Source: Giardia intestinalis | Taxonomy: Eukaryota | Direction: 5' to 3' (one strand) | NCBI GenBank assembly: GCA_000002435.2 | Contig: CM018792.1 | DNA length: 64,000 nt | Shown here: in pieces, positions 3,444 through 42,817 of the stretch | How positions within the stretch are numbered: position 1 is the stretch's first letter | How the letters are laid out: every line of letters starts with the position of its first letter | Notes under the pieces: generated by a model | Databases searched by the model: none | What the model was told of the DNA's origin: nothing | What the model saw: only the letters and a program-made list of their open reading frames with translations | Position numbers and translations under genes: made by a program

Positions 3444-5186
3444 TCACGCCTTCCCCCTACATATGAACCACCAGCAGAGGAAGCCGACGAGGCCCCCCAC
3501 GACGACGACCACGGCGACGGAGATCCCCGCGATGGCGCCTGTGCTGAGGCCGCTCCTGTTGGTGCCAGAGGACACACACTTACCATTGTCTAGACTGAAG
3601 CCACTGTTGCACTCCCCACATATATTATCCATCACACAGCTCTTACAACCACCCACAGAGCACAGGACACACCCACTGCCGTCCCTGTTGGGCTTCCTAT
3701 CACTGTCACAGGAGGTACACACAGCAGCAGCCATACCACCCTCAGTCAGAGCTGTTGGGGCTGTGCACTGTGAGCAGCCATCCACCCCCACGTATGCCTT
3801 AGCAGTATCACCAGTGCCTGTCAGTGTGCCTAGGGGGTTGCTACAAGCCAACACGGACTGATCAGTGTTGGATGCCCCTGGGACCAGGAAGTACTTATTA
3901 CTTGCTGCCTCTGTGCATATCCCATTACTACTTGATGCCTTGCACATGAAGCTACCTGGTTCTTGACCAACCTTATAACAGCCTCCCATATATAAGAAGT
4001 ACCCTTGAGCACACTGTGTACATGTATGACTGTCACAGGTATTAGTTCCTTTCTTATTATTATCACTAGTACATATACCATCAATAGGGAACTTATTAGC
4101 CTCTCCACAGTAAGAACAATAGTGCTTTGTGGTGCCCTGATCATCTATTATCATGGCATCACAGGCGCCAGAGGTACCACCGCAAGCCGTTGTATCCTCG
4201 CAGGTCTTTGTACATGTGACCCCAGTTGAAGGGGTACCGTTTTGCTTGTAGTTGGGCTTACAGGAGTTGCAGGTCAACGAGCCAGAGAAGGTGCACGTTG
4301 CACATCCATCGATGCCCCCCTGTGCATTATCACAAGCAACGCACTCACCAGTAGGACCACTGCCTTTCATGAAGAATCCAGGCTTGCATTTAGTACACTG
4401 ATTATTGCCAGTTTGAGTGCAGGTGGCACAATTATCACCACAGGCTGCGCATGTAACCGTACCACTACCACTACTGTAGTATCCAGCTAAGCACTCTGAG
4501 CAGGTTGGATTGGCACTTGCTGTCTTCGTGCAAGCCTTACAGCCAGCAATGCCTTTGTTCTTTGGGTCTGATCCGCTGGTATCGCTGCACAAGACACACG
4601 CAGCATCACCATCTGCCTTGAAGTGATCAGCATCCTCGCAGCCAGAGCTTATATCGACGCATGTCGTGGTGCCATCGATGGCCGTCTTCACCTTCTTATT
4701 GTTATTACAGGCGGTGCACTGGGGCTTACTGACAGTCGCATTGTACTTACAGGTAGTACATGCTTGATCTATCGTACTGCATTCCTTGCACGTTCCAGAC
4801 TCTGGGTCTGGATAAACGGTGCTCGTGCATTGATCACTAGTTACGCAAGTCTTATCACCCTTCAAGTACTTCCCCTCTGGACACGATGTGCACTGGGCCG
4901 CCGATGTCTCACAGGTCAGACAAGTACCATCACACTTGCTACATGCCTGAAAGTCCTTGTAGTACCCTGCTTGACAGGCAGTACACGTGGCTGCCCCCTT
5001 ATTACTATCTGACTTGGTGCATGTGGCGCAGTTAGCCACCCCCGTATACCCATCTGCTCCCGTGGCATCATGACAGAGTATGCACTCCCTTCCCTTCTCT
5101 GGTGCTGTAGCAGGGTTCTGGAATACGTACTTGTTATCTGTCTTACAAGCAGTGCACAGTCCATTACTGGCTGCTGTGCATATCAC
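3444..5186 (-). CDS. VSP cassette U1 (family A N-terminal body, C/D-type C-terminal block), 5'-truncated: no signal peptide; ORF opens at GTG
   Basis: 580-aa open frame. ...[16 protein letters not shown] then stop TGA at 3444-3446. Polyadenylation motif ACTCAGGTAGTAAAC at 3430-3444. Begins ICTAASNGLCTAC... with no ATG or signal peptide. Confidence 0.8.
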   Translation of the reverse strand: MICTAASNGLCTACKTDNKYVFQNPATAPEKGRECILCHDATGADGYTGVANCATCTKSDSNKGAATCTACQAGYYKDFQACSKCDGTCLTCETSAAQCTSCPEGKYLKGDKTCVTSDQCTSTVYPDPESGTCKECSTIDQACTTCKYNATVSKPQCTACNNNKKVKTAIDGTTTCVDISSGCEDADHFKADGDAACVLCSDTSGSDPKNKGIAGCKACTKTASANPTCSECLAGYYSSGSGTVTCAACGDNCATCTQTGNNQCTKCKPGFFMKGSGPTGECVACDNAQGGIDGCATCTFSGSLTCNSCKPNYKQNGTPSTGVTCTKTCEDTTACGGTSGACDAMIIDDQGTTKHYCSYCGEANKFPIDGICTSDNNKKGTNTCDSHTCTQCAQGYFLYMGGCYKVGQEPGSFMCKASSSNGICTEAASNKYFLVPGASNTDQSVLACSNPLGTLTGTGDTAKAYVGVDGCSQCTAPTALTEGGMAAAVCTSCDSDRKPNRDGSGCVLCSVGGCKSCVMDNICGECNSGFSLDNGKCVSSGTNRSGLSTGAIAGISVAVVVVVGGLVGFLCWWFICRGKA

Positions 5187-5208
5187 CCACTATCACACAC
5201 TGCACAGC

Positions 5209-5225
5209 ATTCACTACCTAAGTCA
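5209..5225 (-). promoter_or_regulatory. VSP stop codon plus extended polyadenylation signal TGACTTAGGTAGTGAAT (AGTRAAY core); representative of a site repeated after every cassette
   Basis: The motif immediately follows or overlaps the TGA after ...CRGKA in every unit. U1 has ACTCAGGTAGTAAAC at 3430-3444. It matches the conserved Giardia VSP 3' element. Confidence 0.75.
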
Positions 5226-7046
5226 CGCCTTCCCTCTACACACGAACCACCAGCAGAGGAAGCCGACGAGGCCCCCCACGACGGCGACCACAGCCACGGA
5301 GATCCCCGCGATGGCCCCCGCGGAGAGCCCGCTCCTGTTGGCGCCAGAGGACACGCACCTGCCACCCTCTAGTCTGTACCCATCACTGCACTGGCCGCAC
5401 TTGTTCTCCTCGCTGCACCTGACGCACCCGTCGATACTGCAGGCGATGCACTGGGAGCCGTCCAGGCTGGGCCTCTGGTCTTTACTGGTACAGCCCTCGC
5501 ACTTATCGCCTGCTCCACAGTGCGAACATCCACTAACGGTACATGCGAAGCACCCGCTCCCAGCCAGGTTGGGCTTGTTGTTGCCGCTACACGCTGTGCA
5601 CGTGGCGGGGGCCATGCCAGGAGCCTCTAGCTGTGTCGGGGCTGTACATGCTGAGCAGCCATCTACTCCCACATATGCCTTAGCAGTATCACCAGTGCCT
5701 GTCAGTGTGCCTAGGGGGTTGCTACAAGCCAACACGGACTGATCAGTGTTGGATGCCCCTGGGACCAGGAAGTACCTATTGTTGGCCGCCTCTGTGCATA
5801 TCCCACTACTATCTGCTGTCTTGCACATATAGTTGCCAGGCTGAGCTGATACACTATAACAGCCACCCATGTATAGGAAGTACCCCGTAGTACATGATGT
5901 ACAGACATGGTTGTTACAAGTATTACTTTGAGCATCACTATTACATATACCATCGATAGGGAACTTATTGGTCTCTCCACAGTATGAACAATAGTGCTTT
6001 GCATTGCCCTTATCATCTATTATCATGGCATCGCAAGCTCCAGAGGTACCACCACAAGCTGTAGGATCCTCACAAGTCTTGGTACATGTGACAGAGCCAG
6101 GACTGCTATCGCTCTGCTTGCGATAGTTGGGCTTACAATCGGTGCACTTGAAAGTATTGCCATCATTCGAGCAGACACTGCATCCATCGATGCCACCTTT
6201 GGCTGTGTCACTACAAGGGACGCACTCCTTTGTTACACCCTCGGTTTTTAGGAAGTATCCCGGCATGCATTCAGTACATTTGTTAATGTCAGTTTCAGCA
6301 GTACACTTTGCACAGGTATCAGCGCATTTCTTCGTACAAGTATTAGTCTCAAGAAAACGACCCGATAGGCATTCAGAGCACGTTGTTTTGGTACCTGCCT
6401 CCTTGGTGCATTTGTTGCAATCGGCAACACCCTTGTTTGTATTCTCATTATTTCCACTAATATCACCACATAGATAACAGGCTGAGTCATCGTCTGCCTT
6501 GAAGTGATTCTCATCCACACATCCAGAGCTCATATCAACACAGGTTGTCGTTCCATCCAGCTCTGTCTTTACCTTCTTATTACCGCAGTCACTGCATACC
6601 GGCTTCTGTAGCTTTGCATCGTACGTGCAAGCAGTGCACTCTGGTATGCCCCCCTGCTCTGCTGCACCGTTACAGGCTGTGCACTTGCCGGTGCTTGGGT
6701 CGGGGTACTGGTTATTATCGCAGGTTTTTGAGCACGACCCGTCTGACTTCAGATAGAAGCCCGCTTTACAAGATGAACACTGATTCTGACCGGCCCCGGT
6801 ACATGTGGCACAGTTGTCATTACATTTGGTACATGCCTGAGAGTCCATGTAGTATCCATCTCTGCAGGTACTACACGTGGCAGGTCCTGTACTACTGTCT
6901 GACTTGGTACACTGTGCGCAGTTAGCCACCCCCGTATATCCATCTGCTCCATTGATATCGGAGCACAGTATGCACTCCCTTCCCTTCTCTGGTGTTGCAG
7001 CCGGGTTCTTGAACAGGCCGTTAGCTGTATTACACTCAGTGCACAC
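5223..7046 (-). CDS. VSP cassette U2 (family B), 5'-truncated; identical to U5 and U7
   Basis: 607 aa ending [10 protein letters not shown], then TGA and ACTTAGGTAGTGAAT. The ORF 'M' is GTG at 7044-7046. The frame is open upstream only to a TAG in the spacer (W-S-E-I-CTKAEGGVCTEC...). Confidence 0.8.
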   Translation of the reverse strand: MCTECNTANGLFKNPAATPEKGRECILCSDINGADGYTGVANCAQCTKSDSSTGPATCSTCRDGYYMDSQACTKCNDNCATCTGAGQNQCSSCKAGFYLKSDGSCSKTCDNNQYPDPSTGKCTACNGAAEQGGIPECTACTYDAKLQKPVCSDCGNKKVKTELDGTTTCVDMSSGCVDENHFKADDDSACYLCGDISGNNENTNKGVADCNKCTKEAGTKTTCSECLSGRFLETNTCTKKCADTCAKCTAETDINKCTECMPGYFLKTEGVTKECVPCSDTAKGGIDGCSVCSNDGNTFKCTDCKPNYRKQSDSSPGSVTCTKTCEDPTACGGTSGACDAMIIDDKGNAKHYCSYCGETNKFPIDGICNSDAQSNTCNNHVCTSCTTGYFLYMGGCYSVSAQPGNYMCKTADSSGICTEAANNRYFLVPGASNTDQSVLACSNPLGTLTGTGDTAKAYVGVDGCSACTAPTQLEAPGMAPATCTACSGNNKPNLAGSGCFACTVSGCSHCGAGDKCEGCTSKDQRPSLDGSQCIACSIDGCVRCSEENKCGQCSDGYRLEGGRCVSSGANRSGLSAGAIAGISVAVVAVVGGLVGFLCWWFVCRGKA

Positions 7047-7168
7047 TCCTCCCTCAGCCTTTGTACATATCTCACTCCACTATCATACTATCACACGCTA
7101 TCACCCATTATCACCCTCTATCACACATTATCACCCATTATCATCACTCATAGCATTCACTACCTAAG
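7047..7168 (-). repeat. Inter-cassette spacer (122-nt class) made of imperfect GTGATA-rich ~20-nt tandem repeats (minus strand GGGTGATAATGTGTGATAGAGGGTGATAATGGGTGATAGCGTGTGATAGTATGATAGTGGAGTGAG)
   Basis: On the plus strand: tatcacacattatcacccattatcatcac.... It recurs at 10841-10962, 12787-12908, 14604-14725, 16550-16671, 18367-18488, 23903-24024, 31549-31670 and 40871-40992. Shorter 36-, 59- and 67-nt versions occur at the other junctions. Confidence 0.85.
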
Positions 7169-9013
7169 TCACGCCTTCCCTCTACACACGAACCACCAGC
7201 AGAGGAAGCCCACGAGGCCCCCCACGACAGCGACCACAGCCACGGAGATCCCCGCGATGGCCCCCGCGGAGAGCCCGCTCCTGTTGGCGCCAGAGGACAC
7301 GCACCTGCCACCCTCTAGTCTGTACCCATCACTGCACTGGCCGCACTTGTTCTCCTCGCTGCACCTGACGCACCCGTCGATACTGCAGGCGATGCACTGG
7401 GAGCCGTCCAGGCTGGGCCTCTGGTCTTTACTGGTACAGCCCTCGCACTTATCGCCTGCTCCACAGTGCGAACATCCACTAACGGTACATGCGAAGCACC
7501 CGCTCCCAGCCAGGTTGGGCTTGTTGTTGCCGCTACACGCTGTGCACGTGGCGGGGGCCATGCCAGGAGCCTCTAGCTGTGTCGGGGCTGTACATGCTGA
7601 GCAGCCATCTACTCCCACATATGCCTTAGCAGTATCACCAGTGCCTGTCAGTGTGCCTAGGGGGTTGCTACAAGCCAACACGGACTGATCAGTGTTGGAT
7701 GCCCCTGGGACCAGGAAGTACTTATTACTTGCTGCCTCTGTGCATATCCCATTACTACTTGATGCCTTGCACATGAAGCTACCTGGTTCTTGACCAACCT
7801 TATAACAGCCTCCCATATATAAGAAGTACCCTTGAGCACACTGTGTACATGTATGACTGTCACAGGTATTAGTTCCTTTCTTATTATTATCACTAGTACA
7901 TATACCATCAATAGGGAACTTATTAGCCTCTCCACAGTAAGAACAATAGTGCTTTGTGGTGCCCTGATCATCTATTATCATGGCATCACAGGCGCCAGAG
8001 GTACCACCGCAAGCCGTTGTATCCTCGCAGGTCTTTGTACATGTGACCCCAGTTGAAGGGGTACCGTTTTGCTTGTAGTTGGGCTTACAGGAGTTGCAGG
8101 TCAACGAGCCAGAGAAGGTGCACGTTGCACATCCATCGATGCCCCCCTGTGCATTATCACAAGCAACGCACTCACCAGTAGGACCACTGCCTTTCATGAA
8201 GAATCCAGGCTTGCATTTAGTACACTGATTATTGCCAGTTTGAGTGCAGGTGGCACAATTATCACCACAGGCTGCGCATGTAACCGTACCACTACCACTA
8301 CTGTAGTATCCAGCTAAGCACTCTGAGCAGGTTGGATTGGCACTTGCTGTCTTCGTGCAAGCCTTACAGCCAGCAATGCCTTTGTTCTTTGGGTCTGATC
8401 CGCTGGTATCGCTGCACAAGACACACGCAGCATCACCATCTGCCTTGAAGTGATCAGCATCCTCGCAGCCAGAGCTTATATCGACGCATGTCGTGGTGCC
8501 ATCGATGGCCGTCTTCACCTTCTTATTGTTATTACAGGCGGTGCACTGGGGCTTACTGACAGTCGCATTGTACTTACAGGTAGTACATGCTTGATCTATC
8601 GTACTGCATTCCTTGCACGTTCCAGACTCTGGGTCTGGATAAACGGTGCTCGTGCATTGATCACTAGTTACGCAAGTCTTATCACCCTTCAAGTACTTCC
8701 CCTCTGGACACGATGTGCACTGGGCCGCCGATGTCTCACAGGTCAGACAAGTACCATCACACTTGCTACATGCCTGAAAGTCCTTGTAGTACCCTGCTTG
8801 ACAGGCAGTACACGTGGCTGCCCCCTTATTACTATCTGACTTGGTGCATGTGGCGCAGTTAGCCACCCCCGTATACCCATCTGCTCCCGTGGCATCATGA
8901 CAGAGTATGCACTCCCTTCCCTTCTCTGGTGCTGTAGCAGGGTTCTGGAATACGTACTTGTTATCTGTCTTACAAGCAGTGCACAGTCCATTACTGGCTG
9001 CTGTGCATATCAC
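7169..9013 (-). CDS. VSP cassette U3 (A body + B C-terminal block), 5'-truncated
   Basis: 614 aa. Identical to U1 up to ...AKAYVGVDGCS, then switches to the B-type tail ACTAPTQLEAPGMAPATC...SDGYRLEGGRCVSSGANRSG. CRGKA tail and polyA motif present. Confidence 0.8.
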   Translation of the reverse strand: MICTAASNGLCTACKTDNKYVFQNPATAPEKGRECILCHDATGADGYTGVANCATCTKSDSNKGAATCTACQAGYYKDFQACSKCDGTCLTCETSAAQCTSCPEGKYLKGDKTCVTSDQCTSTVYPDPESGTCKECSTIDQACTTCKYNATVSKPQCTACNNNKKVKTAIDGTTTCVDISSGCEDADHFKADGDAACVLCSDTSGSDPKNKGIAGCKACTKTASANPTCSECLAGYYSSGSGTVTCAACGDNCATCTQTGNNQCTKCKPGFFMKGSGPTGECVACDNAQGGIDGCATCTFSGSLTCNSCKPNYKQNGTPSTGVTCTKTCEDTTACGGTSGACDAMIIDDQGTTKHYCSYCGEANKFPIDGICTSDNNKKGTNTCDSHTCTQCAQGYFLYMGGCYKVGQEPGSFMCKASSSNGICTEAASNKYFLVPGASNTDQSVLACSNPLGTLTGTGDTAKAYVGVDGCSACTAPTQLEAPGMAPATCTACSGNNKPNLAGSGCFACTVSGCSHCGAGDKCEGCTSKDQRPSLDGSQCIACSIDGCVRCSEENKCGQCSDGYRLEGGRCVSSGANRSGLSAGAIAGISVAVVAVVGGLVGFLCWWFVCRGKA

Positions 9014-9049
9014 CCACTATCACACACTGCACAGCATTCACTACCTAAG

Positions 9050-10840
9050 TCACGCCTTCCCTCTACACACGAACCACCAGCAGAGGAAGCCGACGAGGCC
9101 CCCCACGACGGCGACCACAGCCACGGAGATCCCCGCGATGGCGCCCGTGGAGAGCCCGCTCCTGTTGGTGCTCGTAGACACACAGGAGGTCCCACTGCTG
9201 TCAGGGCTGTATCCACTGTTGCACACACAGACAGAGTTATCATCAGTGGAGTTGCTGGGGCAGCCATCCACGCATGACTTCCTCCCAGGGCTCACCTTCT
9301 TACCACTACTACACACCTCGCACATGTCATCCCTGTTGCAGTGGGAGCATCCACTAATGGCACATGAGAAGCACCCACTGCCGTCCCTGTTGGGCTTCCT
9401 ATCACTGTCACAGGAGGTACACACAGCAGCAGCCATACCACCCTCAGTCAGAGCTGTTGGGGCTGTGCACTGTGAGCAGCCATCCACCCCCACGTATGCC
9501 TTAGCAGTACCTTGAGGGTCTACTAGTGTGCCTAGGGGGTTGCCACAGGCTAGTACAGACTGATCAGTAGCCTTTGCTTCTGGGACTACGAAGTACCTAT
9601 CATTGGCATTGGGAGTAGTACAGACACCAGCTGTTGTTGCTTCGGAGCACATGAGGCTACCAGGCACCTCTGTTGCTTTATAACAGCCACCCATATAGAG
9701 GAAGTAGTTGTTGGTGCACCGCGTACATACACCATCGGCGCAGGTATTACCTGCAAGTGCATTGGTGCACTTCCCATTAATGGGGCCATAGCCGGCGCCA
9801 ACACACTTTGAACAGTAAGAGAGCATGCTGCCGTCGTTGCCGACCACGATGGCGTCGCAGGCCCCTGCTGTCCCCCCGCATGCAGTCTCATCTTCACAGG
9901 TCTTTGTACACGTATAGTCATCCCCTGCATCTCCATTAAGCTGTTTCTTATAGTTAGGCTTACAGTCAGTACATTTGAATCCACCACTGTTAGAGCATGC
10001 ACTGCACCCATCGCGGCCACCATTTGCTGTATCACTACATGAGATGCACTCACCAGAGGAGCTATCCTTCAAGAAGTACCCTTGCTTGCAGGTCGTGCAT
10101 TGGTCTTTTGTATCCTTAGCACAGGTGGCACAGTTCTCACCACAGGCTGTGCATGTAGCGGTATTACCACTTGCACTATTGTAATATCCATCGAGGCACT
10201 TTGTACATGTAGTTTTAGAGGAGCAGGTATCACAACCTAGAATCCCACCATTTTTAGTATCACCACATGGAACACAAGCTTTTGGAGATTGTTCAAGGAA
10301 GTGCGTATTGCCACTTGTGCACTCTGCCTCCGCAACACACGTCGCTGACCCATCGGGGTTCACCTTAAGAAGCAGGTTTCCTCCACTATTACACCCAGTG
10401 CACACAGGCTTCTGAAGAGTGTCGCTGTATGCACACGTAGCACATTCATTGACACTTGTGTCCGTGCAGGCCTTGCATTGGCCTGTTTTTGGGTCTGCAT
10501 ACTTACCATTGTCACATTGATTAGCATCCACACACTTGTCAGCCTTCAGGAACTTCCCCTCAACGCAGGCGGTACACTGAGTCGGAGTATCAGCTGAGCA
10601 GGCAGAGCAGCCCTCTCCGCACTTCACACATGCACTGTCCTTCTTAACGAACCCATCTTGACAGGCAGTACATGTGACAGGTCCTGCACTCTGTGGTGCC
10701 TGACACTGTGCGCAGTTAGCCACCCCCGTATATCCATCTGCTCCCTTGATATCATGACAGAGGATGCACTCACTACCCTTCTCTGGTGTTGCAGCAGGGT
10801 TCTTGAACAGGCCGTTATCTGCCTTACAAGTAGTGCACAC
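9050..10840 (-). CDS. VSP cassette U4 (family C with long C-terminal variant), 5'-truncated
   Basis: 596 aa beginning CTTCKADNGLFKNPAATPEKGSECILCHDIKGADGY. C-terminal block ...CFSCAISGCSHCNRDDMCEVCSSGKKVSPGRKSCVDGCPSNSTDDNSVCVCNSGYSPDSSGTSCVSTSTNRSG..CRGKA. Confidence 0.8.
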   Translation of the reverse strand: MCTTCKADNGLFKNPAATPEKGSECILCHDIKGADGYTGVANCAQCQAPQSAGPVTCTACQDGFVKKDSACVKCGEGCSACSADTPTQCTACVEGKFLKADKCVDANQCDNGKYADPKTGQCKACTDTSVNECATCAYSDTLQKPVCTGCNSGGNLLLKVNPDGSATCVAEAECTSGNTHFLEQSPKACVPCGDTKNGGILGCDTCSSKTTCTKCLDGYYNSASGNTATCTACGENCATCAKDTKDQCTTCKQGYFLKDSSSGECISCSDTANGGRDGCSACSNSGGFKCTDCKPNYKKQLNGDAGDDYTCTKTCEDETACGGTAGACDAIVVGNDGSMLSYCSKCVGAGYGPINGKCTNALAGNTCADGVCTRCTNNYFLYMGGCYKATEVPGSLMCSEATTAGVCTTPNANDRYFVVPEAKATDQSVLACGNPLGTLVDPQGTAKAYVGVDGCSQCTAPTALTEGGMAAAVCTSCDSDRKPNRDGSGCFSCAISGCSHCNRDDMCEVCSSGKKVSPGRKSCVDGCPSNSTDDNSVCVCNSGYSPDSSGTSCVSTSTNRSGLSTGAIAGISVAVVAVVGGLVGFLCWWFVCRGKA

Positions 10841-10962
10841 TCCTCCCTCAGCCTTTGTACATATCTCACTCCACTATCATACTATCACACACTATCACCC
10901 ATTATCACCCTCTATCACACATTATCACCCATTATCATCACTCATAGCATTCACTACCTAAG

Positions 10963-12786
10963 TCACGCCTTCCCTCTACACACGAACCACCAGCAGAGGA
11001 AGCCCACGAGGCCCCCCACGACAGCGACCACAGCCACGGAGATCCCCGCGATGGCCCCCGCGGAGAGCCCGCTCCTGTTGGCGCCAGAGGACACGCACCT
11101 GCCACCCTCTAGTCTGTACCCATCACTGCACTGGCCGCACTTGTTCTCCTCGCTGCACCTGACGCACCCGTCGATACTGCAGGCGATGCACTGGGAGCCG
11201 TCCAGGCTGGGCCTCTGGTCTTTACTGGTACAGCCCTCGCACTTATCGCCTGCTCCACAGTGCGAACATCCACTAACGGTACATGCGAAGCACCCGCTCC
11301 CAGCCAGGTTGGGCTTGTTGTTGCCGCTACACGCTGTGCACGTGGCGGGGGCCATGCCAGGAGCCTCTAGCTGTGTCGGGGCTGTACATGCTGAGCAGCC
11401 ATCTACTCCCACATATGCCTTAGCAGTATCACCAGTGCCTGTCAGTGTGCCTAGGGGGTTGCTACAAGCCAACACGGACTGATCAGTGTTGGATGCCCCT
11501 GGGACCAGGAAGTACCTATTGTTGGCCGCCTCTGTGCATATCCCACTACTATCTGCTGTCTTGCACATATAGTTGCCAGGCTGAGCTGATACACTATAAC
11601 AGCCACCCATGTATAGGAAGTACCCCGTAGTACATGATGTACAGACATGGTTGTTACAAGTATTACTTTGAGCATCACTATTACATATACCATCGATAGG
11701 GAACTTATTGGTCTCTCCACAGTATGAACAATAGTGCTTTGCATTGCCCTTATCATCTATTATCATGGCATCGCAAGCTCCAGAGGTACCACCACAAGCT
11801 GTAGGATCCTCACAAGTCTTGGTACATGTGACAGAGCCAGGACTGCTATCGCTCTGCTTGCGATAGTTGGGCTTACAATCGGTGCACTTGAAAGTATTGC
11901 CATCATTCGAGCAGACACTGCATCCATCGATGCCACCTTTGGCTGTGTCACTACAAGGGACGCACTCCTTTGTTACACCCTCGGTTTTTAGGAAGTATCC
12001 CGGCATGCATTCAGTACATTTGTTAATGTCAGTTTCAGCAGTACACTTTGCACAGGTATCAGCGCATTTCTTCGTACAAGTATTAGTCTCAAGAAAACGA
12101 CCCGATAGGCATTCAGAGCACGTTGTTTTGGTACCTGCCTCCTTGGTGCATTTGTTGCAATCGGCAACACCCTTGTTTGTATTCTCATTATTTCCACTAA
12201 TATCACCACATAGATAACAGGCTGAGTCATCGTCTGCCTTGAAGTGATTCTCATCCACACATCCAGAGCTCATATCAACACAGGTTGTCGTTCCATCCAG
12301 CTCTGTCTTTACCTTCTTATTACCGCAGTCACTGCATACCGGCTTCTGTAGCTTTGCATCGTACGTGCAAGCAGTGCACTCTGGTATGCCCCCCTGCTCT
12401 GCTGCACCGTTACAGGCTGTGCACTTGCCGGTGCTTGGGTCGGGGTACTGGTTATTATCGCAGGTTTTTGAGCACGACCCGTCTGACTTCAGATAGAAGC
12501 CCGCTTTACAAGATGAACACTGATTCTGACCGGCCCCGGTACATGTGGCACAGTTGTCATTACATTTGGTACATGCCTGAGAGTCCATGTAGTATCCATC
12601 TCTGCAGGTACTACACGTGGCAGGTCCTGTACTACTGTCTGACTTGGTACACTGTGCGCAGTTAGCCACCCCCGTATATCCATCTGCTCCATTGATATCG
12701 GAGCACAGTATGCACTCCCTTCCCTTCTCTGGTGTTGCAGCCGGGTTCTTGAACAGGCCGTTAGCTGTATTACACTCAGTGCACAC
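10963..12786 (-). CDS. VSP cassette U5 (family B), identical to U2 and U7
   Basis: The 607-aa translation is identical to U2 and U7. CRGKA tail present. Confidence 0.8.
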   Translation of the reverse strand: MCTECNTANGLFKNPAATPEKGRECILCSDINGADGYTGVANCAQCTKSDSSTGPATCSTCRDGYYMDSQACTKCNDNCATCTGAGQNQCSSCKAGFYLKSDGSCSKTCDNNQYPDPSTGKCTACNGAAEQGGIPECTACTYDAKLQKPVCSDCGNKKVKTELDGTTTCVDMSSGCVDENHFKADDDSACYLCGDISGNNENTNKGVADCNKCTKEAGTKTTCSECLSGRFLETNTCTKKCADTCAKCTAETDINKCTECMPGYFLKTEGVTKECVPCSDTAKGGIDGCSVCSNDGNTFKCTDCKPNYRKQSDSSPGSVTCTKTCEDPTACGGTSGACDAMIIDDKGNAKHYCSYCGETNKFPIDGICNSDAQSNTCNNHVCTSCTTGYFLYMGGCYSVSAQPGNYMCKTADSSGICTEAANNRYFLVPGASNTDQSVLACSNPLGTLTGTGDTAKAYVGVDGCSACTAPTQLEAPGMAPATCTACSGNNKPNLAGSGCFACTVSGCSHCGAGDKCEGCTSKDQRPSLDGSQCIACSIDGCVRCSEENKCGQCSDGYRLEGGRCVSSGANRSGLSAGAIAGISVAVVAVVGGLVGFLCWWFVCRGKA

Positions 12787-12908
12787 TCCTCCCTCAGCCT
12801 TTGTACATATCTCACTCCACTATCATACTATCACACACTATCACCCATTATCACCCTCTATCACACATTATCACCCATTATCATCACTCATAGCATTCAC
12901 TACCTAAG

Positions 12909-14603
12909 TCACGCCTTCCCTCTACACACGAACCACCAGCAGAGGAAGCCCACGAGGCCCCCCACGACAGCGACCACAGCCACGGAGATCCCCGCGATGG
13001 CCCCCGCGGAGAGCCCGCTCCTGTTGGCGCCAGAGGACACACACTTACCATTGTCTAGACTGAAGCCACTGTTGCACTCCCCACACACACCGTCCACCAC
13101 ACAGCTCTTACAACCACCCACAGAGCACAGGACACACCCACTGCCGTCCCTGTTGGGCTTCCTATCACTGTCACAGGAGGTACACACAGCAGCAGCCATA
13201 CCACCCTCAGTCAGAGCTGTTGGGGCTGTGCACTGTGAGCAGCCATCCACCCCCACGTATGCCTTAGCAGTACCTTGAGGGTCTACTAGTGTGCCTAGGG
13301 GGTTGCCACAGGCTAGTACAGACTGATCAGTAGCCTTTGCTTCTGGGACTACGAAGTACCTATCATTGGCATTGGGAGTAGTACAGACACCAGCTGTTGT
13401 TGCTTCGGAGCACATGAGGCTACCAGGCACCTCTGTTGCTTTATAACAGCCACCCATATAGAGGAAGTAGTTGTTGGTGCACCGCGTACATACACCATCG
13501 GCGCAGGTATTACCTGCAAGTGCATTGGTGCACTTCCCATTAATGGGGCCATAGCCGGCGCCAACACACTTTGAACAGTAAGAGAGCATGCTGCCGTCGT
13601 TGCCGACCACGATGGCGTCGCAGGCCCCTGCTGTCCCCCCGCATGCAGTCTCATCTTCACAGGTCTTTGTACACGTATAGTCATCCCCTGCATCTCCATT
13701 AAGCTGTTTCTTATAGTTAGGCTTACAGTCAGTACATTTGAATCCACCACTGTTAGAGCATGCACTGCACCCATCGCGGCCACCATTTGCTGTATCACTA
13801 CATGAGATGCACTCACCAGAGGAGCTATCCTTCAAGAAGTACCCTTGCTTGCAGGTCGTGCATTGGTCTTTTGTATCCTTAGCACAGGTGGCACAGTTCT
13901 CACCACAGGCTGTGCATGTAGCGGTATTACCACTTGCACTATTGTAATATCCATCGAGGCACTTTGTACATGTAGTTTTAGAGGAGCAGGTATCACAACC
14001 TAGAATCCCACCATTTTTAGTATCACCACATGGAACACAAGCTTTTGGAGATTGTTCAAGGAAGTGCGTATTGCCACTTGTGCACTCTGCCTCCGCAACA
14101 CACGTCGCTGACCCATCGGGGTTCACCTTAAGAAGCAGGTTTCCTCCACTATTACACCCAGTGCACACAGGCTTCTGAAGAGTGTCGCTGTATGCACACG
14201 TAGCACATTCATTGACACTTGTGTCCGTGCAGGCCTTGCATTGGCCTGTTTTTGGGTCTGCATACTTACCATTGTCACATTGATTAGCATCCACACACTT
14301 GTCAGCCTTCAGGAACTTCCCCTCAACGCAGGCGGTACACTGAGTCGGAGTATCAGCTGAGCAGGCAGAGCAGCCCTCTCCGCACTTCACACATGCACTG
14401 TCCTTCTTAACGAACCCATCTTGACAGGCAGTACATGTGACAGGTCCTGCACTCTGTGGTGCCTGACACTGTGCGCAGTTAGCCACCCCCGTATATCCAT
14501 CTGCTCCCTTGATATCATGACAGAGGATGCACTCACTACCCTTCTCTGGTGTTGCAGCCGGGTTCTTGAACAGGCCGTTAGCTGTATTACACTCAGTGCA
14601 CAC
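12909..14603 (-). CDS. VSP cassette U6 (B-type first 22 aa, C body, short C/D tail), 5'-truncated
   Basis: 564 aa. Starts CTECNTANGLFKNPAATPEKG (B), then SECILCHDIKGADGY... (C). Tail ...CVLCSVGGCKSCVVDGVCGECNSGFSLDNGKCVSSGANRSG..CRGKA. Confidence 0.8.
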   Translation of the reverse strand: MCTECNTANGLFKNPAATPEKGSECILCHDIKGADGYTGVANCAQCQAPQSAGPVTCTACQDGFVKKDSACVKCGEGCSACSADTPTQCTACVEGKFLKADKCVDANQCDNGKYADPKTGQCKACTDTSVNECATCAYSDTLQKPVCTGCNSGGNLLLKVNPDGSATCVAEAECTSGNTHFLEQSPKACVPCGDTKNGGILGCDTCSSKTTCTKCLDGYYNSASGNTATCTACGENCATCAKDTKDQCTTCKQGYFLKDSSSGECISCSDTANGGRDGCSACSNSGGFKCTDCKPNYKKQLNGDAGDDYTCTKTCEDETACGGTAGACDAIVVGNDGSMLSYCSKCVGAGYGPINGKCTNALAGNTCADGVCTRCTNNYFLYMGGCYKATEVPGSLMCSEATTAGVCTTPNANDRYFVVPEAKATDQSVLACGNPLGTLVDPQGTAKAYVGVDGCSQCTAPTALTEGGMAAAVCTSCDSDRKPNRDGSGCVLCSVGGCKSCVVDGVCGECNSGFSLDNGKCVSSGANRSGLSAGAIAGISVAVVAVVGGLVGFLCWWFVCRGKA

Positions 14604-14725
14604 TCCTCCCTCAGCCTTTGTACATATCTCACTCCACTATCATACTATCACACGCTATCACCCATTATCACCCTCTATCACACATTATCACCCATTATCA
14701 TCACTCATAGCATTCACTACCTAAG

Positions 14726-16549
14726 TCACGCCTTCCCTCTACACACGAACCACCAGCAGAGGAAGCCCACGAGGCCCCCCACGACAGCGACCACAGCCAC
14801 GGAGATCCCCGCGATGGCCCCCGCGGAGAGCCCGCTCCTGTTGGCGCCAGAGGACACGCACCTGCCACCCTCTAGTCTGTACCCATCACTGCACTGGCCG
14901 CACTTGTTCTCCTCGCTGCACCTGACGCACCCGTCGATACTGCAGGCGATGCACTGGGAGCCGTCCAGGCTGGGCCTCTGGTCTTTACTGGTACAGCCCT
15001 CGCACTTATCGCCTGCTCCACAGTGCGAACATCCACTAACGGTACATGCGAAGCACCCGCTCCCAGCCAGGTTGGGCTTGTTGTTGCCGCTACACGCTGT
15101 GCACGTGGCGGGGGCCATGCCAGGAGCCTCTAGCTGTGTCGGGGCTGTACATGCTGAGCAGCCATCTACTCCCACATATGCCTTAGCAGTATCACCAGTG
15201 CCTGTCAGTGTGCCTAGGGGGTTGCTACAAGCCAACACGGACTGATCAGTGTTGGATGCCCCTGGGACCAGGAAGTACCTATTGTTGGCCGCCTCTGTGC
15301 ATATCCCACTACTATCTGCTGTCTTGCACATATAGTTGCCAGGCTGAGCTGATACACTATAACAGCCACCCATGTATAGGAAGTACCCCGTAGTACATGA
15401 TGTACAGACATGGTTGTTACAAGTATTACTTTGAGCATCACTATTACATATACCATCGATAGGGAACTTATTGGTCTCTCCACAGTATGAACAATAGTGC
15501 TTTGCATTGCCCTTATCATCTATTATCATGGCATCGCAAGCTCCAGAGGTACCACCACAAGCTGTAGGATCCTCACAAGTCTTGGTACATGTGACAGAGC
15601 CAGGACTGCTATCGCTCTGCTTGCGATAGTTGGGCTTACAATCGGTGCACTTGAAAGTATTGCCATCATTCGAGCAGACACTGCATCCATCGATGCCACC
15701 TTTGGCTGTGTCACTACAAGGGACGCACTCCTTTGTTACACCCTCGGTTTTTAGGAAGTATCCCGGCATGCATTCAGTACATTTGTTAATGTCAGTTTCA
15801 GCAGTACACTTTGCACAGGTATCAGCGCATTTCTTCGTACAAGTATTAGTCTCAAGAAAACGACCCGATAGGCATTCAGAGCACGTTGTTTTGGTACCTG
15901 CCTCCTTGGTGCATTTGTTGCAATCGGCAACACCCTTGTTTGTATTCTCATTATTTCCACTAATATCACCACATAGATAACAGGCTGAGTCATCGTCTGC
16001 CTTGAAGTGATTCTCATCCACACATCCAGAGCTCATATCAACACAGGTTGTCGTTCCATCCAGCTCTGTCTTTACCTTCTTATTACCGCAGTCACTGCAT
16101 ACCGGCTTCTGTAGCTTTGCATCGTACGTGCAAGCAGTGCACTCTGGTATGCCCCCCTGCTCTGCTGCACCGTTACAGGCTGTGCACTTGCCGGTGCTTG
16201 GGTCGGGGTACTGGTTATTATCGCAGGTTTTTGAGCACGACCCGTCTGACTTCAGATAGAAGCCCGCTTTACAAGATGAACACTGATTCTGACCGGCCCC
16301 GGTACATGTGGCACAGTTGTCATTACATTTGGTACATGCCTGAGAGTCCATGTAGTATCCATCTCTGCAGGTACTACACGTGGCAGGTCCTGTACTACTG
16401 TCTGACTTGGTACACTGTGCGCAGTTAGCCACCCCCGTATATCCATCTGCTCCATTGATATCGGAGCACAGTATGCACTCCCTTCCCTTCTCTGGTGTTG
16501 CAGCCGGGTTCTTGAACAGGCCGTTAGCTGTATTACACTCAGTGCACAC
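14726..16549 (-). CDS. VSP cassette U7 (family B), identical to U2 and U5
   Basis: 607-aa translation identical to U2 and U5. The 3763-bp period U5+U6 = U7+U8 marks a higher-order repeat. Confidence 0.8.
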   Translation of the reverse strand: MCTECNTANGLFKNPAATPEKGRECILCSDINGADGYTGVANCAQCTKSDSSTGPATCSTCRDGYYMDSQACTKCNDNCATCTGAGQNQCSSCKAGFYLKSDGSCSKTCDNNQYPDPSTGKCTACNGAAEQGGIPECTACTYDAKLQKPVCSDCGNKKVKTELDGTTTCVDMSSGCVDENHFKADDDSACYLCGDISGNNENTNKGVADCNKCTKEAGTKTTCSECLSGRFLETNTCTKKCADTCAKCTAETDINKCTECMPGYFLKTEGVTKECVPCSDTAKGGIDGCSVCSNDGNTFKCTDCKPNYRKQSDSSPGSVTCTKTCEDPTACGGTSGACDAMIIDDKGNAKHYCSYCGETNKFPIDGICNSDAQSNTCNNHVCTSCTTGYFLYMGGCYSVSAQPGNYMCKTADSSGICTEAANNRYFLVPGASNTDQSVLACSNPLGTLTGTGDTAKAYVGVDGCSACTAPTQLEAPGMAPATCTACSGNNKPNLAGSGCFACTVSGCSHCGAGDKCEGCTSKDQRPSLDGSQCIACSIDGCVRCSEENKCGQCSDGYRLEGGRCVSSGANRSGLSAGAIAGISVAVVAVVGGLVGFLCWWFVCRGKA

Positions 16550-16671
16550 TCCTCCCTCAGCCTTTGTACATATCTCACTCCACTATCATACTATCACACA
16601 CTATCACCCATTATCACCCTCTATCACACATTATCACCCATTATCATCACTCATAGCATTCACTACCTAAG

Positions 16672-18366
16672 TCACGCCTTCCCTCTACACACGAACCACC
16701 AGCAGAGGAAGCCCACGAGGCCCCCCACGACAGCGATGACAGCGACGGAGATCCCCGCGATGGCCCCCGTGGAGAGCCCGCTCCTGTTGGCGCCAGAGGA
16801 CACACACTTACCATTGTCTAGACTGAAGCCACTGTTGCACTCCCCACACACACCGTCCACCACACAGCTCTTACAACCACCCACAGAGCACAGGACACAC
16901 CCACTGCCGTCCCTGTTGGGCTTCCTATCACTGTCACAGGAGGTACACACAGCAGCAGCCATACCACCCTCAGTCAGAGCTGTTGGGGCTGTGCACTGTG
17001 AGCAGCCATCCACCCCCACGTATGCCTTAGCAGTACCTTGAGGGTCTACTAGTGTGCCTAGGGGGTTGCCACAGGCTAGTACAGACTGATCAGTAGCCTT
17101 TGCTTCTGGGACTACGAAGTACCTATCATTGGCATTGGGAGTAGTACAGACACCAGCTGTTGTTGCTTCGGAGCACATGAGGCTACCAGGCACCTCTGTT
17201 GCTTTATAACAGCCACCCATATAGAGGAAGTAGTTGTTGGTGCACCGCGTACATACACCATCGGCGCAGGTATTACCTGCAAGTGCATTGGTGCACTTCC
17301 CATTAATGGGGCCATAGCCGGCGCCAACACACTTTGAACAGTAAGAGAGCATGCTGCCGTCGTTGCCGACCACGATGGCGTCGCAGGCCCCTGCTGTCCC
17401 CCCGCATGCAGTCTCATCTTCACAGGTCTTTGTACACGTATAGTCATCCCCTGCATCTCCATTAAGCTGTTTCTTATAGTTAGGCTTACAGTCAGTACAT
17501 TTGAATCCACCACTGTTAGAGCATGCACTGCACCCATCGCGGCCACCATTTGCTGTATCACTACATGAGATGCACTCACCAGAGGAGCTATCCTTCAAGA
17601 AGTACCCTTGCTTGCAGGTCGTGCATTGGTCTTTTGTATCCTTAGCACAGGTGGCACAGTTCTCACCACAGGCTGTGCATGTAGCGGTATTACCACTTGC
17701 ACTATTGTAATATCCATCGAGGCACTTTGTACATGTAGTTTTAGAGGAGCAGGTATCACAACCTAGAATCCCACCATTTTTAGTATCACCACATGGAACA
17801 CAAGCTTTTGGAGATTGTTCAAGGAAGTGCGTATTGCCACTTGTGCACTCTGCCTCCGCAACACACGTCGCTGACCCATCGGGGTTCACCTTAAGAAGCA
17901 GGTTTCCTCCACTATTACACCCAGTGCACACAGGCTTCTGAAGAGTGTCGCTGTATGCACACGTAGCACATTCATTGACACTTGTGTCCGTGCAGGCCTT
18001 GCATTGGCCTGTTTTTGGGTCTGCATACTTACCATTGTCACATTGATTAGCATCCACACACTTGTCAGCCTTCAGGAACTTCCCCTCAACGCAGGCGGTA
18101 CACTGAGTCGGAGTATCAGCTGAGCAGGCAGAGCAGCCCTCTCCGCACTTCACACATGCACTGTCCTTCTTAACGAACCCATCTTGACAGGCAGTACATG
18201 TGACAGGTCCTGCACTCTGTGGTGCCTGACACTGTGCGCAGTTAGCCACCCCCGTATATCCATCTGCTCCCTTGATATCATGACAGAGGATGCACTCACT
18301 ACCCTTCTCTGGTGTTGCAGCAGGGTTCTTGAACAGGCCGTTATCTGCCTTACAAGTAGTGCACAC
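16672..18366 (-). CDS. VSP cassette U8 (family C), near-identical to U6
   Basis: 564 aa. Differs from U6 only in the first ~8 aa and in the TM region (STGAIAGISVAVIAVV). Confidence 0.8.
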   Translation of the reverse strand: MCTTCKADNGLFKNPAATPEKGSECILCHDIKGADGYTGVANCAQCQAPQSAGPVTCTACQDGFVKKDSACVKCGEGCSACSADTPTQCTACVEGKFLKADKCVDANQCDNGKYADPKTGQCKACTDTSVNECATCAYSDTLQKPVCTGCNSGGNLLLKVNPDGSATCVAEAECTSGNTHFLEQSPKACVPCGDTKNGGILGCDTCSSKTTCTKCLDGYYNSASGNTATCTACGENCATCAKDTKDQCTTCKQGYFLKDSSSGECISCSDTANGGRDGCSACSNSGGFKCTDCKPNYKKQLNGDAGDDYTCTKTCEDETACGGTAGACDAIVVGNDGSMLSYCSKCVGAGYGPINGKCTNALAGNTCADGVCTRCTNNYFLYMGGCYKATEVPGSLMCSEATTAGVCTTPNANDRYFVVPEAKATDQSVLACGNPLGTLVDPQGTAKAYVGVDGCSQCTAPTALTEGGMAAAVCTSCDSDRKPNRDGSGCVLCSVGGCKSCVVDGVCGECNSGFSLDNGKCVSSGANRSGLSTGAIAGISVAVIAVVGGLVGFLCWWFVCRGKA

Positions 18367-18488
18367 TCCTCCCTCAGCCTTTGTACATATCTCACTCCAC
18401 TATCATACTATCACACACTATCACCCATTATCACCCTCTATCACACATTATCACCCATTATCATCACTCATAGCATTCACTACCTAAG

Positions 18489-20333
18489 TCACGCCTTCCC
18501 TCTACACACGAACCACCAGCAGAGGAAGCCCACGAGGCCCCCCACGACAGCGACCACAGCCACGGAGATCCCCGCGATGGCCCCCGCGGAGAGCCCGCTC
18601 CTGTTGGCGCCAGAGGACACGCACCTGCCACCCTCTAGTCTGTACCCATCACTGCACTGGCCGCACTTGTTCTCCTCGCTGCACCTGACGCACCCGTCGA
18701 TACTGCAGGCGATGCACTGGGAGCCGTCCAGGCTGGGCCTCTGGTCTTTACTGGTACAGCCCTCGCACTTATCGCCTGCTCCACAGTGCGAACATCCACT
18801 AACGGTACATGCGAAGCACCCGCTCCCAGCCAGGTTGGGCTTGTTGTTGCCGCTACACGCTGTGCACGTGGCGGGGGCCATGCCAGGAGCCTCTAGCTGT
18901 GTCGGGGCTGTACATGCTGAGCAGCCATCTACTCCCACATATGCCTTAGCAGTATCACCAGTGCCTGTCAGTGTGCCTAGGGGGTTGCTACAAGCCAACA
19001 CGGACTGATCAGTGTTGGATGCCCCTGGGACCAGGAAGTACTTATTACTTGCTGCCTCTGTGCATATCCCATTACTACTTGATGCCTTGCACATGAAGCT
19101 ACCTGGTTCTTGACCAACCTTATAACAGCCTCCCATATATAAGAAGTACCCTTGAGCACACTGTGTACATGTATGACTGTCACAGGTATTAGTTCCTTTC
19201 TTATTATTATCACTAGTACATATACCATCAATAGGGAACTTATTAGCCTCTCCACAGTAAGAACAATAGTGCTTTGTGGTGCCCTGATCATCTATTATCA
19301 TGGCATCACAGGCGCCAGAGGTACCACCGCAAGCCGTTGTATCCTCGCAGGTCTTTGTACATGTGACCCCAGTTGAAGGGGTACCGTTTTGCTTGTAGTT
19401 GGGCTTACAGGAGTTGCAGGTCAACGAGCCAGAGAAGGTGCACGTTGCACATCCATCGATGCCCCCCTGTGCATTATCACAAGCAACGCACTCACCAGTA
19501 GGACCACTGCCTTTCATGAAGAATCCAGGCTTGCATTTAGTACACTGATTATTGCCAGTTTGAGTGCAGGTGGCACAATTATCACCACAGGCTGCGCATG
19601 TAACCGTACCACTACCACTACTGTAGTATCCAGCTAAGCACTCTGAGCAGGTTGGATTGGCACTTGCTGTCTTCGTGCAAGCCTTACAGCCAGCAATGCC
19701 TTTGTTCTTTGGGTCTGATCCGCTGGTATCGCTGCACAAGACACACGCAGCATCACCATCTGCCTTGAAGTGATCAGCATCCTCGCAGCCAGAGCTTATA
19801 TCGACGCATGTCGTGGTGCCATCGATGGCCGTCTTCACCTTCTTATTGTTATTACAGGCGGTGCACTGGGGCTTACTGACAGTCGCATTGTACTTACAGG
19901 TAGTACATGCTTGATCTATCGTACTGCATTCCTTGCACGTTCCAGACTCTGGGTCTGGATAAACGGTGCTCGTGCATTGATCACTAGTTACGCAAGTCTT
20001 ATCACCCTTCAAGTACTTCCCCTCTGGACACGATGTGCACTGGGCCGCCGATGTCTCACAGGTCAGACAAGTACCATCACACTTGCTACATGCCTGAAAG
20101 TCCTTGTAGTACCCTGCTTGACAGGCAGTACACGTGGCTGCCCCCTTATTACTATCTGACTTGGTGCATGTGGCGCAGTTAGCCACCCCCGTATACCCAT
20201 CTGCTCCCGTGGCATCATGACAGAGTATGCACTCATTACCAGGGGTCACCTTCTCTGCCCCATTCTGGAATATGTACTGGTTATCTGTCTTACAAGCAGT
20301 GCACACTCCATCCTTGGCTGCTGTGCATATCAT
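18489..20333 (-). CDS. VSP cassette U9 (D-type first ~35 aa, A body, B tail); fortuitous ATG, no signal peptide
   Basis: 614 aa. MICTAAKDGVCTACKTDNQYIFQNGAEKVTPGNECILCHDATGADGY, then A-type body, then B-type C-terminal block. ATG at 20331-20333 but no signal sequence. Confidence 0.8.
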   Translation of the reverse strand: MICTAAKDGVCTACKTDNQYIFQNGAEKVTPGNECILCHDATGADGYTGVANCATCTKSDSNKGAATCTACQAGYYKDFQACSKCDGTCLTCETSAAQCTSCPEGKYLKGDKTCVTSDQCTSTVYPDPESGTCKECSTIDQACTTCKYNATVSKPQCTACNNNKKVKTAIDGTTTCVDISSGCEDADHFKADGDAACVLCSDTSGSDPKNKGIAGCKACTKTASANPTCSECLAGYYSSGSGTVTCAACGDNCATCTQTGNNQCTKCKPGFFMKGSGPTGECVACDNAQGGIDGCATCTFSGSLTCNSCKPNYKQNGTPSTGVTCTKTCEDTTACGGTSGACDAMIIDDQGTTKHYCSYCGEANKFPIDGICTSDNNKKGTNTCDSHTCTQCAQGYFLYMGGCYKVGQEPGSFMCKASSSNGICTEAASNKYFLVPGASNTDQSVLACSNPLGTLTGTGDTAKAYVGVDGCSACTAPTQLEAPGMAPATCTACSGNNKPNLAGSGCFACTVSGCSHCGAGDKCEGCTSKDQRPSLDGSQCIACSIDGCVRCSEENKCGQCSDGYRLEGGRCVSSGANRSGLSAGAIAGISVAVVAVVGGLVGFLCWWFVCRGKA

Positions 20334-20392
20334 ACTCCACTATCACCCTCTATCACACACTATCACACACTGTACAGCATTCACTACCTAAG

Positions 20393-33428: not shown

Positions 33429-33495
33429 ACTCCACTATCACACTATCACCCTCTATTACCCATTATCACACATTGTATAGCATTCACTACCTAAG

Positions 33496-35229: not shown

Positions 35230-35265
35230 CCACTATCACACATTGTACAGCATTCACTACCCAAG

Positions 35266-37032: not shown

Positions 37033-37099
37033 ACTCCACTATCACACATTATCACACTATCACCTTCTATCACACATTGTACAGCATTCACTACCTAAG

Positions 37100-39070: not shown

Positions 39071-39082
39071 TCACTACCTAAG

Positions 39083-40870: not shown

Positions 40871-40992
40871 TCCTCCCTCAGCCTTTGTACATATCTCACT
40901 CCACTATCATACTATCACACACTATCACCCATTATCACCCTCTATCACACATTATCACCCATTATCATCACTCATAGCATTCACTACCTAAG

Positions 40993-42750: not shown

Positions 42751-42817
42751 ACTCCACTATCACACTATCACCCTCTATTACCCATTATCACACATTGTAT
42801 AGCATTCACTACCTAAG

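Follow-up and report, generated by a model that had tools for sequence, protein, structure and literature searches.

Organisation of the VSP array

The 64-kb stretch of DNA analysed here (the window) carries on its minus strand a head-to-tail array of 22 VSP units, in which a complete gene (U1, 42818–44887) is followed by 21 5′-truncated cassettes (U2–U22, 3444–42817). Both U1 and the cassettes matched the Pfam VSP profile (PF03302), and 22 CRGKA-stop modules were found on this strand across the window, with none on the plus strand. U1 encodes a protein of 689 aa with a signal peptide (MFQLIPLFVASALMAAC), identical to KAE8304460.1 (XP_037902103.1). Together with a flanking thymidine kinase, which matched KAE8304467.1 exactly, it identifies the source as Giardia intestinalis strain WB, the matched WB C6 proteins deriving from the 2020 chromosome-scale assembly. 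The first ~320 nt of U1 are GC-rich and unique, and its start codon lies within the VSP initiator motif TAatgTT (44883–44889; motif definition from PMC2996952). This is the single occurrence of YAATGTT in the 64-kb window, compared with a mean of 14 in shuffled sequences and at least one in each of 100 shuffles, so that the heptamer is strongly depleted outside the U1 start. The ~1.4 kb upstream of U1 (44890–46300) has a GC content of ~63%.

Homology of the cassettes to U1 starts at about codon 95–110, at LFMGGCY in the two E-type units (U4 and U11, numbered U19 and U12 in the preliminary description) and at (S)EICT in the others, whose ORFs begin behind a stop, at WSEICT, WSVICT or WVICT. All units lie on the minus strand, and each is given below with its spacer and spacer class, the latter being the distance in nt from the preceding stop codon to the TGTGCACT anchor: 64 (n = 3), 87 (n = 2), 95 (n = 4), 123 (n = 10) or 148 (n = 2, E-type). 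Family A comprises U2 (40993–42817; spacer 42757–42817, class 95), U7 (31671–33495; spacer 33435–33495, class 95), which is identical to U2, and U13 (20393–22209; spacer 22157–22209, class 87). Family B, entirely of class 123, comprises U3 (39083–40992; spacer 40904–40992), U12 (22210–24024; spacer 23936–24024), U15 (16672–18488; spacer 18400–18488), U17 (12909–14725; spacer 14637–14725) and U19 (9050–10962; spacer 10874–10962). Family C is likewise of class 123 and includes U8 (29716–31670; spacer 31582–31670), U16 (14726–16671; spacer 16583–16671), U18 (10963–12908; spacer 12820–12908) and U21 (5223–7168; spacer 7080–7168). Family D consists of U6 (33496–35265; spacer 35233–35265, class 64), U14 (18489–20392; spacer 20340–20392, class 87), U20 (7169–9049; spacer 9017–9049, class 64) and the last cassette, U22 (3444–5222; spacer 5190–5222, class 64). 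Two further groups are formed by the E-type units U4 (37100–39082; spacer 39011–39082) and U11 (24025–25998; spacer 25927–25998), both of class 148, and by the family F units U9 (27868–29715; spacer 29655–29715, class 95) and U10 (25999–27867; spacer 27779–27867, class 123); U5 (35266–37099; spacer 37039–37099, class 95) completes the set. Reading frames are intact in 18 of the 21 cassettes, while U9, U10 and U12 are disrupted in frame within their 3′ third. A higher-order repeat, a two-cassette block of families B and C with a period of ~3.76 kb, spans U14–U19 (9050–20392), and its 98.5% identity over 6.2 kb indicates a recent multi-unit duplication.

The 3′ end of U22 carries a variant UTR (AGTAAAC) and is followed by unrelated sequence free of the GTGATA repeat described below. 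Directly 3′ of the array and on the same strand (302–2755) lies an intact gene for a cysteine-rich membrane protein of 817 aa. The protein matches Pfam VSP and has a signal peptide, and its TM segment is VSP-like, but a long cytoplasmic tail replaces CRGKA, so that the gene looks like one of the HCMP/CRMP type. On the U1 side, synteny with the DH isolate (assemblage A2, L004) extends at 97.4% identity over 10.2 kb and breaks off a short way upstream of the start codon of U1 (window 44908, L004 10172), beyond which DH carries one different VSP and then unrelated genes (acyltransferase and others). Because DH synteny stops there, the array appears to sit at a strain-specific breakpoint, the alternative being that it was collapsed in the DH short-read assembly.

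Tandem VSP loci of this type have been described as "linear arrays" by Adam et al. 2010 (PMC2996952) and also by Xu, Jex & Svärd 2020 (PMC7000408). In a published array, the initiator PyAatgTT and an upstream region are found at the first gene, later members have neither the initiator nor a proper start, and intergenic gaps average 60 bp with a range up to 241 (PMC2996952). The present locus belongs with them: 22 of 22 units are head-to-tail VSP homologues ending in TM-CRGKA, a stop codon and AGTRAAY; the initiator, ATG and signal peptide occur in the first member and are absent from the downstream ones; and the gaps, taken from stop codon to the opening of the cassette ORF, measure 33–89 nt. 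The hypothesis that pseudo-VSPs serve the head gene as recombination cassettes is also in print (PMC2996952). The locus type and the cassette idea have thus been known since 2010 and 2020, and it is the spacer repeat that appears to be undescribed, as a full-text literature search on the spacer and UTR strings returned no description of it.

A GTGATA decamer repeat at cassette junctions

Every cassette junction has the same order of elements, namely TM-CRGKA-TGA, a 17-nt 3′UTR, a GTGATA-rich tandem repeat and a truncated coding start, and the repeat and the CRGKA module noted at cassette junctions in the preliminary description were seen at all 21 of them. The spacer between U18 and U19 (10874–10962, minus strand) may serve as an example. 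Reading 10841–10962 along the minus strand, CRGKA-TGA is followed by the UTR CTTAGGTAGTGAATGCT, the GTGATA-rich repeat, TAG and W-S-E-I-C-T-K-A-E-G-G; the spacer contains the 17-nt 3′UTR and a 78-nt C-free GTGATA decamer repeat running to the in-frame TAG, and 10841–10873 (WSEICTKAEGG, 33 nt) is already cassette coding sequence. Tandem Repeats Finder reported arrays of period 10 and 20 in the spacers, with 2–5.7 copies and the plus-strand consensus TCACCCACTATCACACATTA. With short head-to-tail units whose copy number varies between loci, the element is a minisatellite or short tandem repeat.

Within the window, the repeat is confined to the VSP cassette boundaries. Searches with GTGATARTGKGTGATAG (≤2 mismatches) and GTGATANNNNGTGATA (≤1 mismatch) each gave 65 matches, against 0.08 and 0.33 expected, respectively, and all 65 fell in minus-strand spacers. 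Neither pattern matched in cassette bodies, upstream of U1 or in 19 kb of non-VSP genes, and the pattern scan likewise found no GTGATA repeat inside U1, in agreement with its reported absence upstream of the complete gene. The length classes of 36, 59, 67 and 122 nt originally proposed correspond to real classes, but these had been taken as ending at the first GTG or ATG of a mechanically called ORF. As had been pointed out, the E-type units retain ~50 extra nt (LFMGGCYNKDAHPG), and their spacer motif GTGATAGTGATAGT is read through as DSDS; in U4, where the hexamer GTGATA repeat gives this peptide, the ORF is open from an ATG within the UTR.

Spacer class and the type of coding start that follows are perfectly linked, with one start type to each class. 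The spacers contain 0–2 C each, at least one stop in every frame and 3–8 ATGs. The ten class-123 spacers differ at one site, compared with pS of ~0.55 in the adjoining bodies, and this conservation beyond that of the bodies, together with recurrence of the repeat in other arrays, could mean that the spacer has a function and is not merely hitch-hiking with homogenised junctions. Several candidate identities for the spacer were rejected: it has no predicted hairpin or other secondary structure (folding energy of −0.1 kcal/mol, not different from that of shuffles); inspected by eye for a G-quadruplex, it has ≤3 GGG runs per spacer, separated by long loops; it matches the telomere repeat (TAGGG) at only 4 of 10 positions; and it has no similarity to the missing N-terminal coding region, which is GC-rich, and so is not a decayed remnant of it.

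As the only AT-richer stretch between units, the spacer might be thought to act on RNA, as a weak promoter or terminator yielding sterile cassette transcripts that feed RNAi control of VSPs. Giardia promoters are short and AT-rich, which would suit such a role, and RNAi control of VSPs has been described (PMC8957917). However, no VSP initiator motif was found in any spacer of the 64-kb window, and the ψVSPs of G. muris are essentially all untranscribed (PMC7641422), and we regard a role in RNA as highly improbable.

To place the repeat in a wider context, its distribution was scanned in the 64-kb window and in other Giardia DNA totalling about 110 kb. In two contigs, L009 and L010, drawn from independent ENA assemblies, the identical UTR and GTGATA spacer lie on both sides of cassettes that have 68–80% nucleotide identity to anything in the window, and repeat copy number differs between junctions and between assemblies. 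L009 also holds, at 1880–2150, a mini-cassette of ~70 codons (GGCKSCVVDNICGECSDG...CRGKA) between two GTGATA spacers, where the repeat directly abuts a third, far deeper truncation point. Other WB arrays were judged indirectly, from the N-termini of 2007-annotation proteins: P0020, P0022 and P0031, from other arrays, start with the spacer read-through MLYSDSDS or GDSDS, and P0016 also carries a spacer read-through peptide. That the truncation points at LFMGGCY, at SEICT and in the L009 mini-cassette all abut the repeat suggests that deletions have extended out of the repeat into cassette sequence.

The repeat was absent from about 100 kb of the other Giardia DNA, including the assemblage B array L006. 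It was also absent from the assemblage B-type cassettes L011 and L012, making three assemblage B ψVSP junctions sampled, one array included, and from the sequence downstream of the single P15 (L008) and DH (L004) VSPs sampled; a scan of JGI metagenomes with the UTR-plus-spacer pattern gave 0 matches. The L011 and L012 cassettes have a different 5′ boundary (VNDPAGVSIDSLCRP) behind GC-rich sequence. Headless assemblage B-type VSPs (L011 1–560, L012 1–560, P0026, P0034, P0040, P0046 and others) share the 5′ boundary VNDPAGVSIDSLCRPSSSPQA, which corresponds to about codon 48 of a complete VSP and follows GC-rich sequence several hundred nt long, with no short GTGATA spacer.

Segmental exchange among cassettes and with the head gene

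Exchange tracts were mapped by alignment painting and by exact-repeat mapping (exact repeats ≥100 nt). Painting resolved every unit into a mosaic of blocks common to several units in differing combinations. The head gene is no exception: between nt 347 and 2070 of U1 (window 42818–44541), tracts of 133–1,089 nt that are 100% identical to cassette sequence cover ~95% of the positions, a figure that refers to the cassette-homologous part of the gene alone. These tracts match U8 (U1 nt 347–499), U6/14/20/22 (496–647), U11 (645–1733; at 1,089 nt the longest, with U9/10 over part of it), U5 (1135–1595) and U6 (1818–2070). U1 is therefore a mosaic of segments identical to different cassettes, which records exchange without direction or timing, and the view of the cassettes as a recombination archive is upheld in this respect. 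Polishing of the long-read assembly could inflate perfect identity among paralogues. Internal segments have been swapped among cassettes and with the head gene, leaving tracts of perfect identity.

Breakpoints are not evenly spread. Immediately 5′ of the TM segment lies a variable region that reassorts freely with the following spacer, and excess haplotype combinations number seven (3 + 4) across the 3′ module and three (1 + 1 + 1) in the first ~100 nt after the anchor, with none inside the spacer. Similarly, 35 of 159 abrupt exact-repeat ends fall in the last 160 nt of units, which make up 8.5% of array length, a 2.6-fold enrichment. The data thus support the 3′ TM-CRGKA-UTR module, which the preliminary description had proposed as a homology anchor, as a crossover zone: whole units have been duplicated and reassorted via crossovers in a conserved 3′ module of ~95–160 nt.

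This module had been called invariant, which applies to its end and not to its whole length. All 22 units have CRGKA-TGA, and 20 of them share an identical 17-nt UTR with the poly(A) signal AGTGAAT, but 30 sites vary within the last 120 coding nt, which fall into 13 haplotypes. Over the last 40 codons pS is about 0.27, compared with ~0.55 elsewhere between families. Low pS here, with the near-identical UTRs and class-123 spacers, points to concerted evolution of the junction blocks only.

The spacer itself behaves differently from the 3′ module. None of the 159 abrupt ends, which are evolutionary evidence, falls within the spacer repeat (3.2% of array length); the corresponding probability would be ~0.006 if boundaries were independent, which they are not, and the significance is modest because the spacers form a small target (1.26 kb in total). 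This bears on the earlier proposal of transposable cassettes delimited by the 3′ CRGKA module and, on the 5′ side, by the GTGATA spacer as a dedicated recombination anchor comparable to the 70-bp repeats of trypanosome VSGs. In its favour, the repeat stands at all 21 junctions and nowhere else in the window, it recurs at the junctions of unrelated cassettes in other assemblies, and cassette bodies reassort against the block of spacer and 5′ start, their breakpoints lying no more than about 100 nt past the TGTGCACT anchor. Nevertheless, the head gene is without the repeat, which accordingly cannot pair donor with recipient; tract boundaries and haplotype reassortment are both at zero within the spacer; spacers differ in length, each being perfectly linked to the next coding start; and the sampled assemblage B array and cassettes do without it. 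Its absence at the complete gene had been read as the mark of a recipient, yet both partners must carry a sequence for homologous recombination to use it, and the trypanosome precedent had been misread. An anchor role is, in our view, improbable.

The concentration of breakpoints on either side of the spacer also raises the question of an active cis element (an R-loop, a fragile site or a slippage-prone site) that breaks DNA and drives unit turnover by means other than homology. The extreme base asymmetry of the spacers, with G+T-rich decamers and next to no C, would be in line with this, and the variation in copy number between junctions and assemblies indicates slippage. Conserved flanking sequence, however, explains the flanking breakpoints equally well, no structure is predicted, and no run of four G-tracts is available for a quadruplex. 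We give an element of this kind little credence.

The coding content of the cassettes bears on whether they are roleless debris of tandem duplication, each extending from about VSP codon 95 to past the poly(A) site, with the spacer as a scar. A single founder junction would explain why all units agree in truncation zone and spacer type, the reading frame is disrupted in three cassettes, and "remains of discarded vsp genes" are listed as an alternative in PMC2996952. On the other hand, the ORFs of 18 of the 21 cassettes are intact even though synonymous divergence between cassette families is near saturation (pS ~0.55), Cys columns are invariant in 68 of 70 cases (other columns, 145 of 481), and dN/dS is about 0.3 (0.24–0.48). 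Judged by these measures, the cassettes are not decaying and show constraint at the protein level. Many perfect tracts are, moreover, common to the head gene and different cassettes, and both assemblage B and G. muris have kept comparable ψVSP arrays. Debris without a role is for these reasons unlikely.

A probable silent reservoir and its counterparts in other systems

The reading that we consider reasonably probable is that the locus is a silent pseudo-VSP reservoir exchanging segments with its head gene, and that the GTGATA spacer is a passive junction minisatellite rather than an anchor. U1 is the one expression-competent gene. The 21 cassettes, which have neither promoter or initiator nor signal peptide and offer no start codon that could be used, would serve through segmental gene conversion to patch the variable ectodomain of U1 and possibly those of other VSPs. 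The 5′ homology for transfer into U1 would be provided by the coding sequence itself, from about nt 283 or 318 of U1, and not by the spacer. The latter would be a decamer minisatellite caught between the poly(A) signal of one unit and the truncated 5′ end of the next, probably inherited from the founder junction of assemblage A-type arrays, resized by slippage (13–78 nt) and always travelling with the downstream cassette start, its effect likely being passive. Being C-free and unstructured, with stops in three frames and 3–8 decoy ATGs, the spacer would keep the cassettes untranslatable, a block on translation that may be a side effect and was possibly selected.

The usual account of antigenic variation in Giardia is that RNAi or an epigenetic mechanism selects among intact VSP genes, and the role of the roughly 200 pseudo-VSPs is an open question in the published literature. 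With the variable region of U1 tiled by tracts identical to 21 adjacent, silent and constrained cassettes, VSP gene conversion becomes testable at a single locus. There is a small chance that assemblage A ψVSP arrays possess, in the C-free GTGATA decamer, a cis element specific to their lineage that promotes breakage or recruits a factor at cassette junctions and so drives both the turnover of cassettes and segmental conversion into head genes; if true, antigenic diversification in Giardia would be partly recombination-driven and not purely epigenetic or RNAi-based. On present evidence, the spacer repeat offers a sequence tag for assemblage A-type cassette junctions and no new mechanism.

The closest counterparts are the published Giardia linear arrays, which share with this locus the head-to-tail units, the initiator on the first gene, short gaps, a conserved CRGKA end and long stretches of 100% identity between members. 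The longest array known at that time had 10 members, compared with 22 units here; the array papers give intergenic lengths only and no GTGATA decamer, which is present at the junctions here; and the explicit tiling of a head gene by cassette-identical tracts goes beyond the published accounts. The arrays of G. muris likewise consist of signal-peptide-less VSP copies (Xu et al. 2020, PMC7641422), and gene conversion between ψVSP arrays and intact VSPs has been argued there from phylogeny (PMC7641422). They are, however, telomere-adjacent, with the intact genes elsewhere, whereas here an intact gene heads an array set between ordinary genes, and the tail motif is GCRGK in G. muris and CRGKA here.

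The GTGATA spacer resembles the 70-bp repeats of T. brucei in consisting of imperfect short tandem repeats immediately 5′ of silent antigen-gene copies, although the repeat unit is 10 nt here and about 70 nt in T. brucei. The T. brucei repeat lies upstream of both the donor and the expression-site gene, and the 5′ ends of conversion map within it. At the present locus, by contrast, the silent donors carry the repeat and the head gene has none, and the evolutionary evidence places no tract ends (0 of 159) and no excess haplotype combinations in it. The likeness does extend to the conserved 3′ gene ends, which provide downstream homology in both systems; here reassortment and tract ends cluster in the last ~160 nt.

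A further parallel is offered by vlsE of Borrelia burgdorferi, with its silent vls cassettes and 17-bp direct repeats, and vlhA of Mycoplasma synoviae, with its pseudogene array, where unidirectional conversion during infection has been demonstrated. In Giardia, unlike these bacterial systems, switching is attributed to epigenetic or RNAi-based control, and programmed conversion is not known to occur. The architecture is nonetheless shared: one expressed gene with a unique 5′ end lies beside contiguous, 5′-truncated, promoter-less cassettes with open frames and short repeats at their junctions, and the expressed gene forms a mosaic of segments. In the Giardia array, a single expression-competent gene adjoins contiguous 5′-truncated cassettes, 18 of 21 with intact ORFs, and cassette-identical tracts, which do not in themselves give direction, tile 95% of U1 nt 347–2070.
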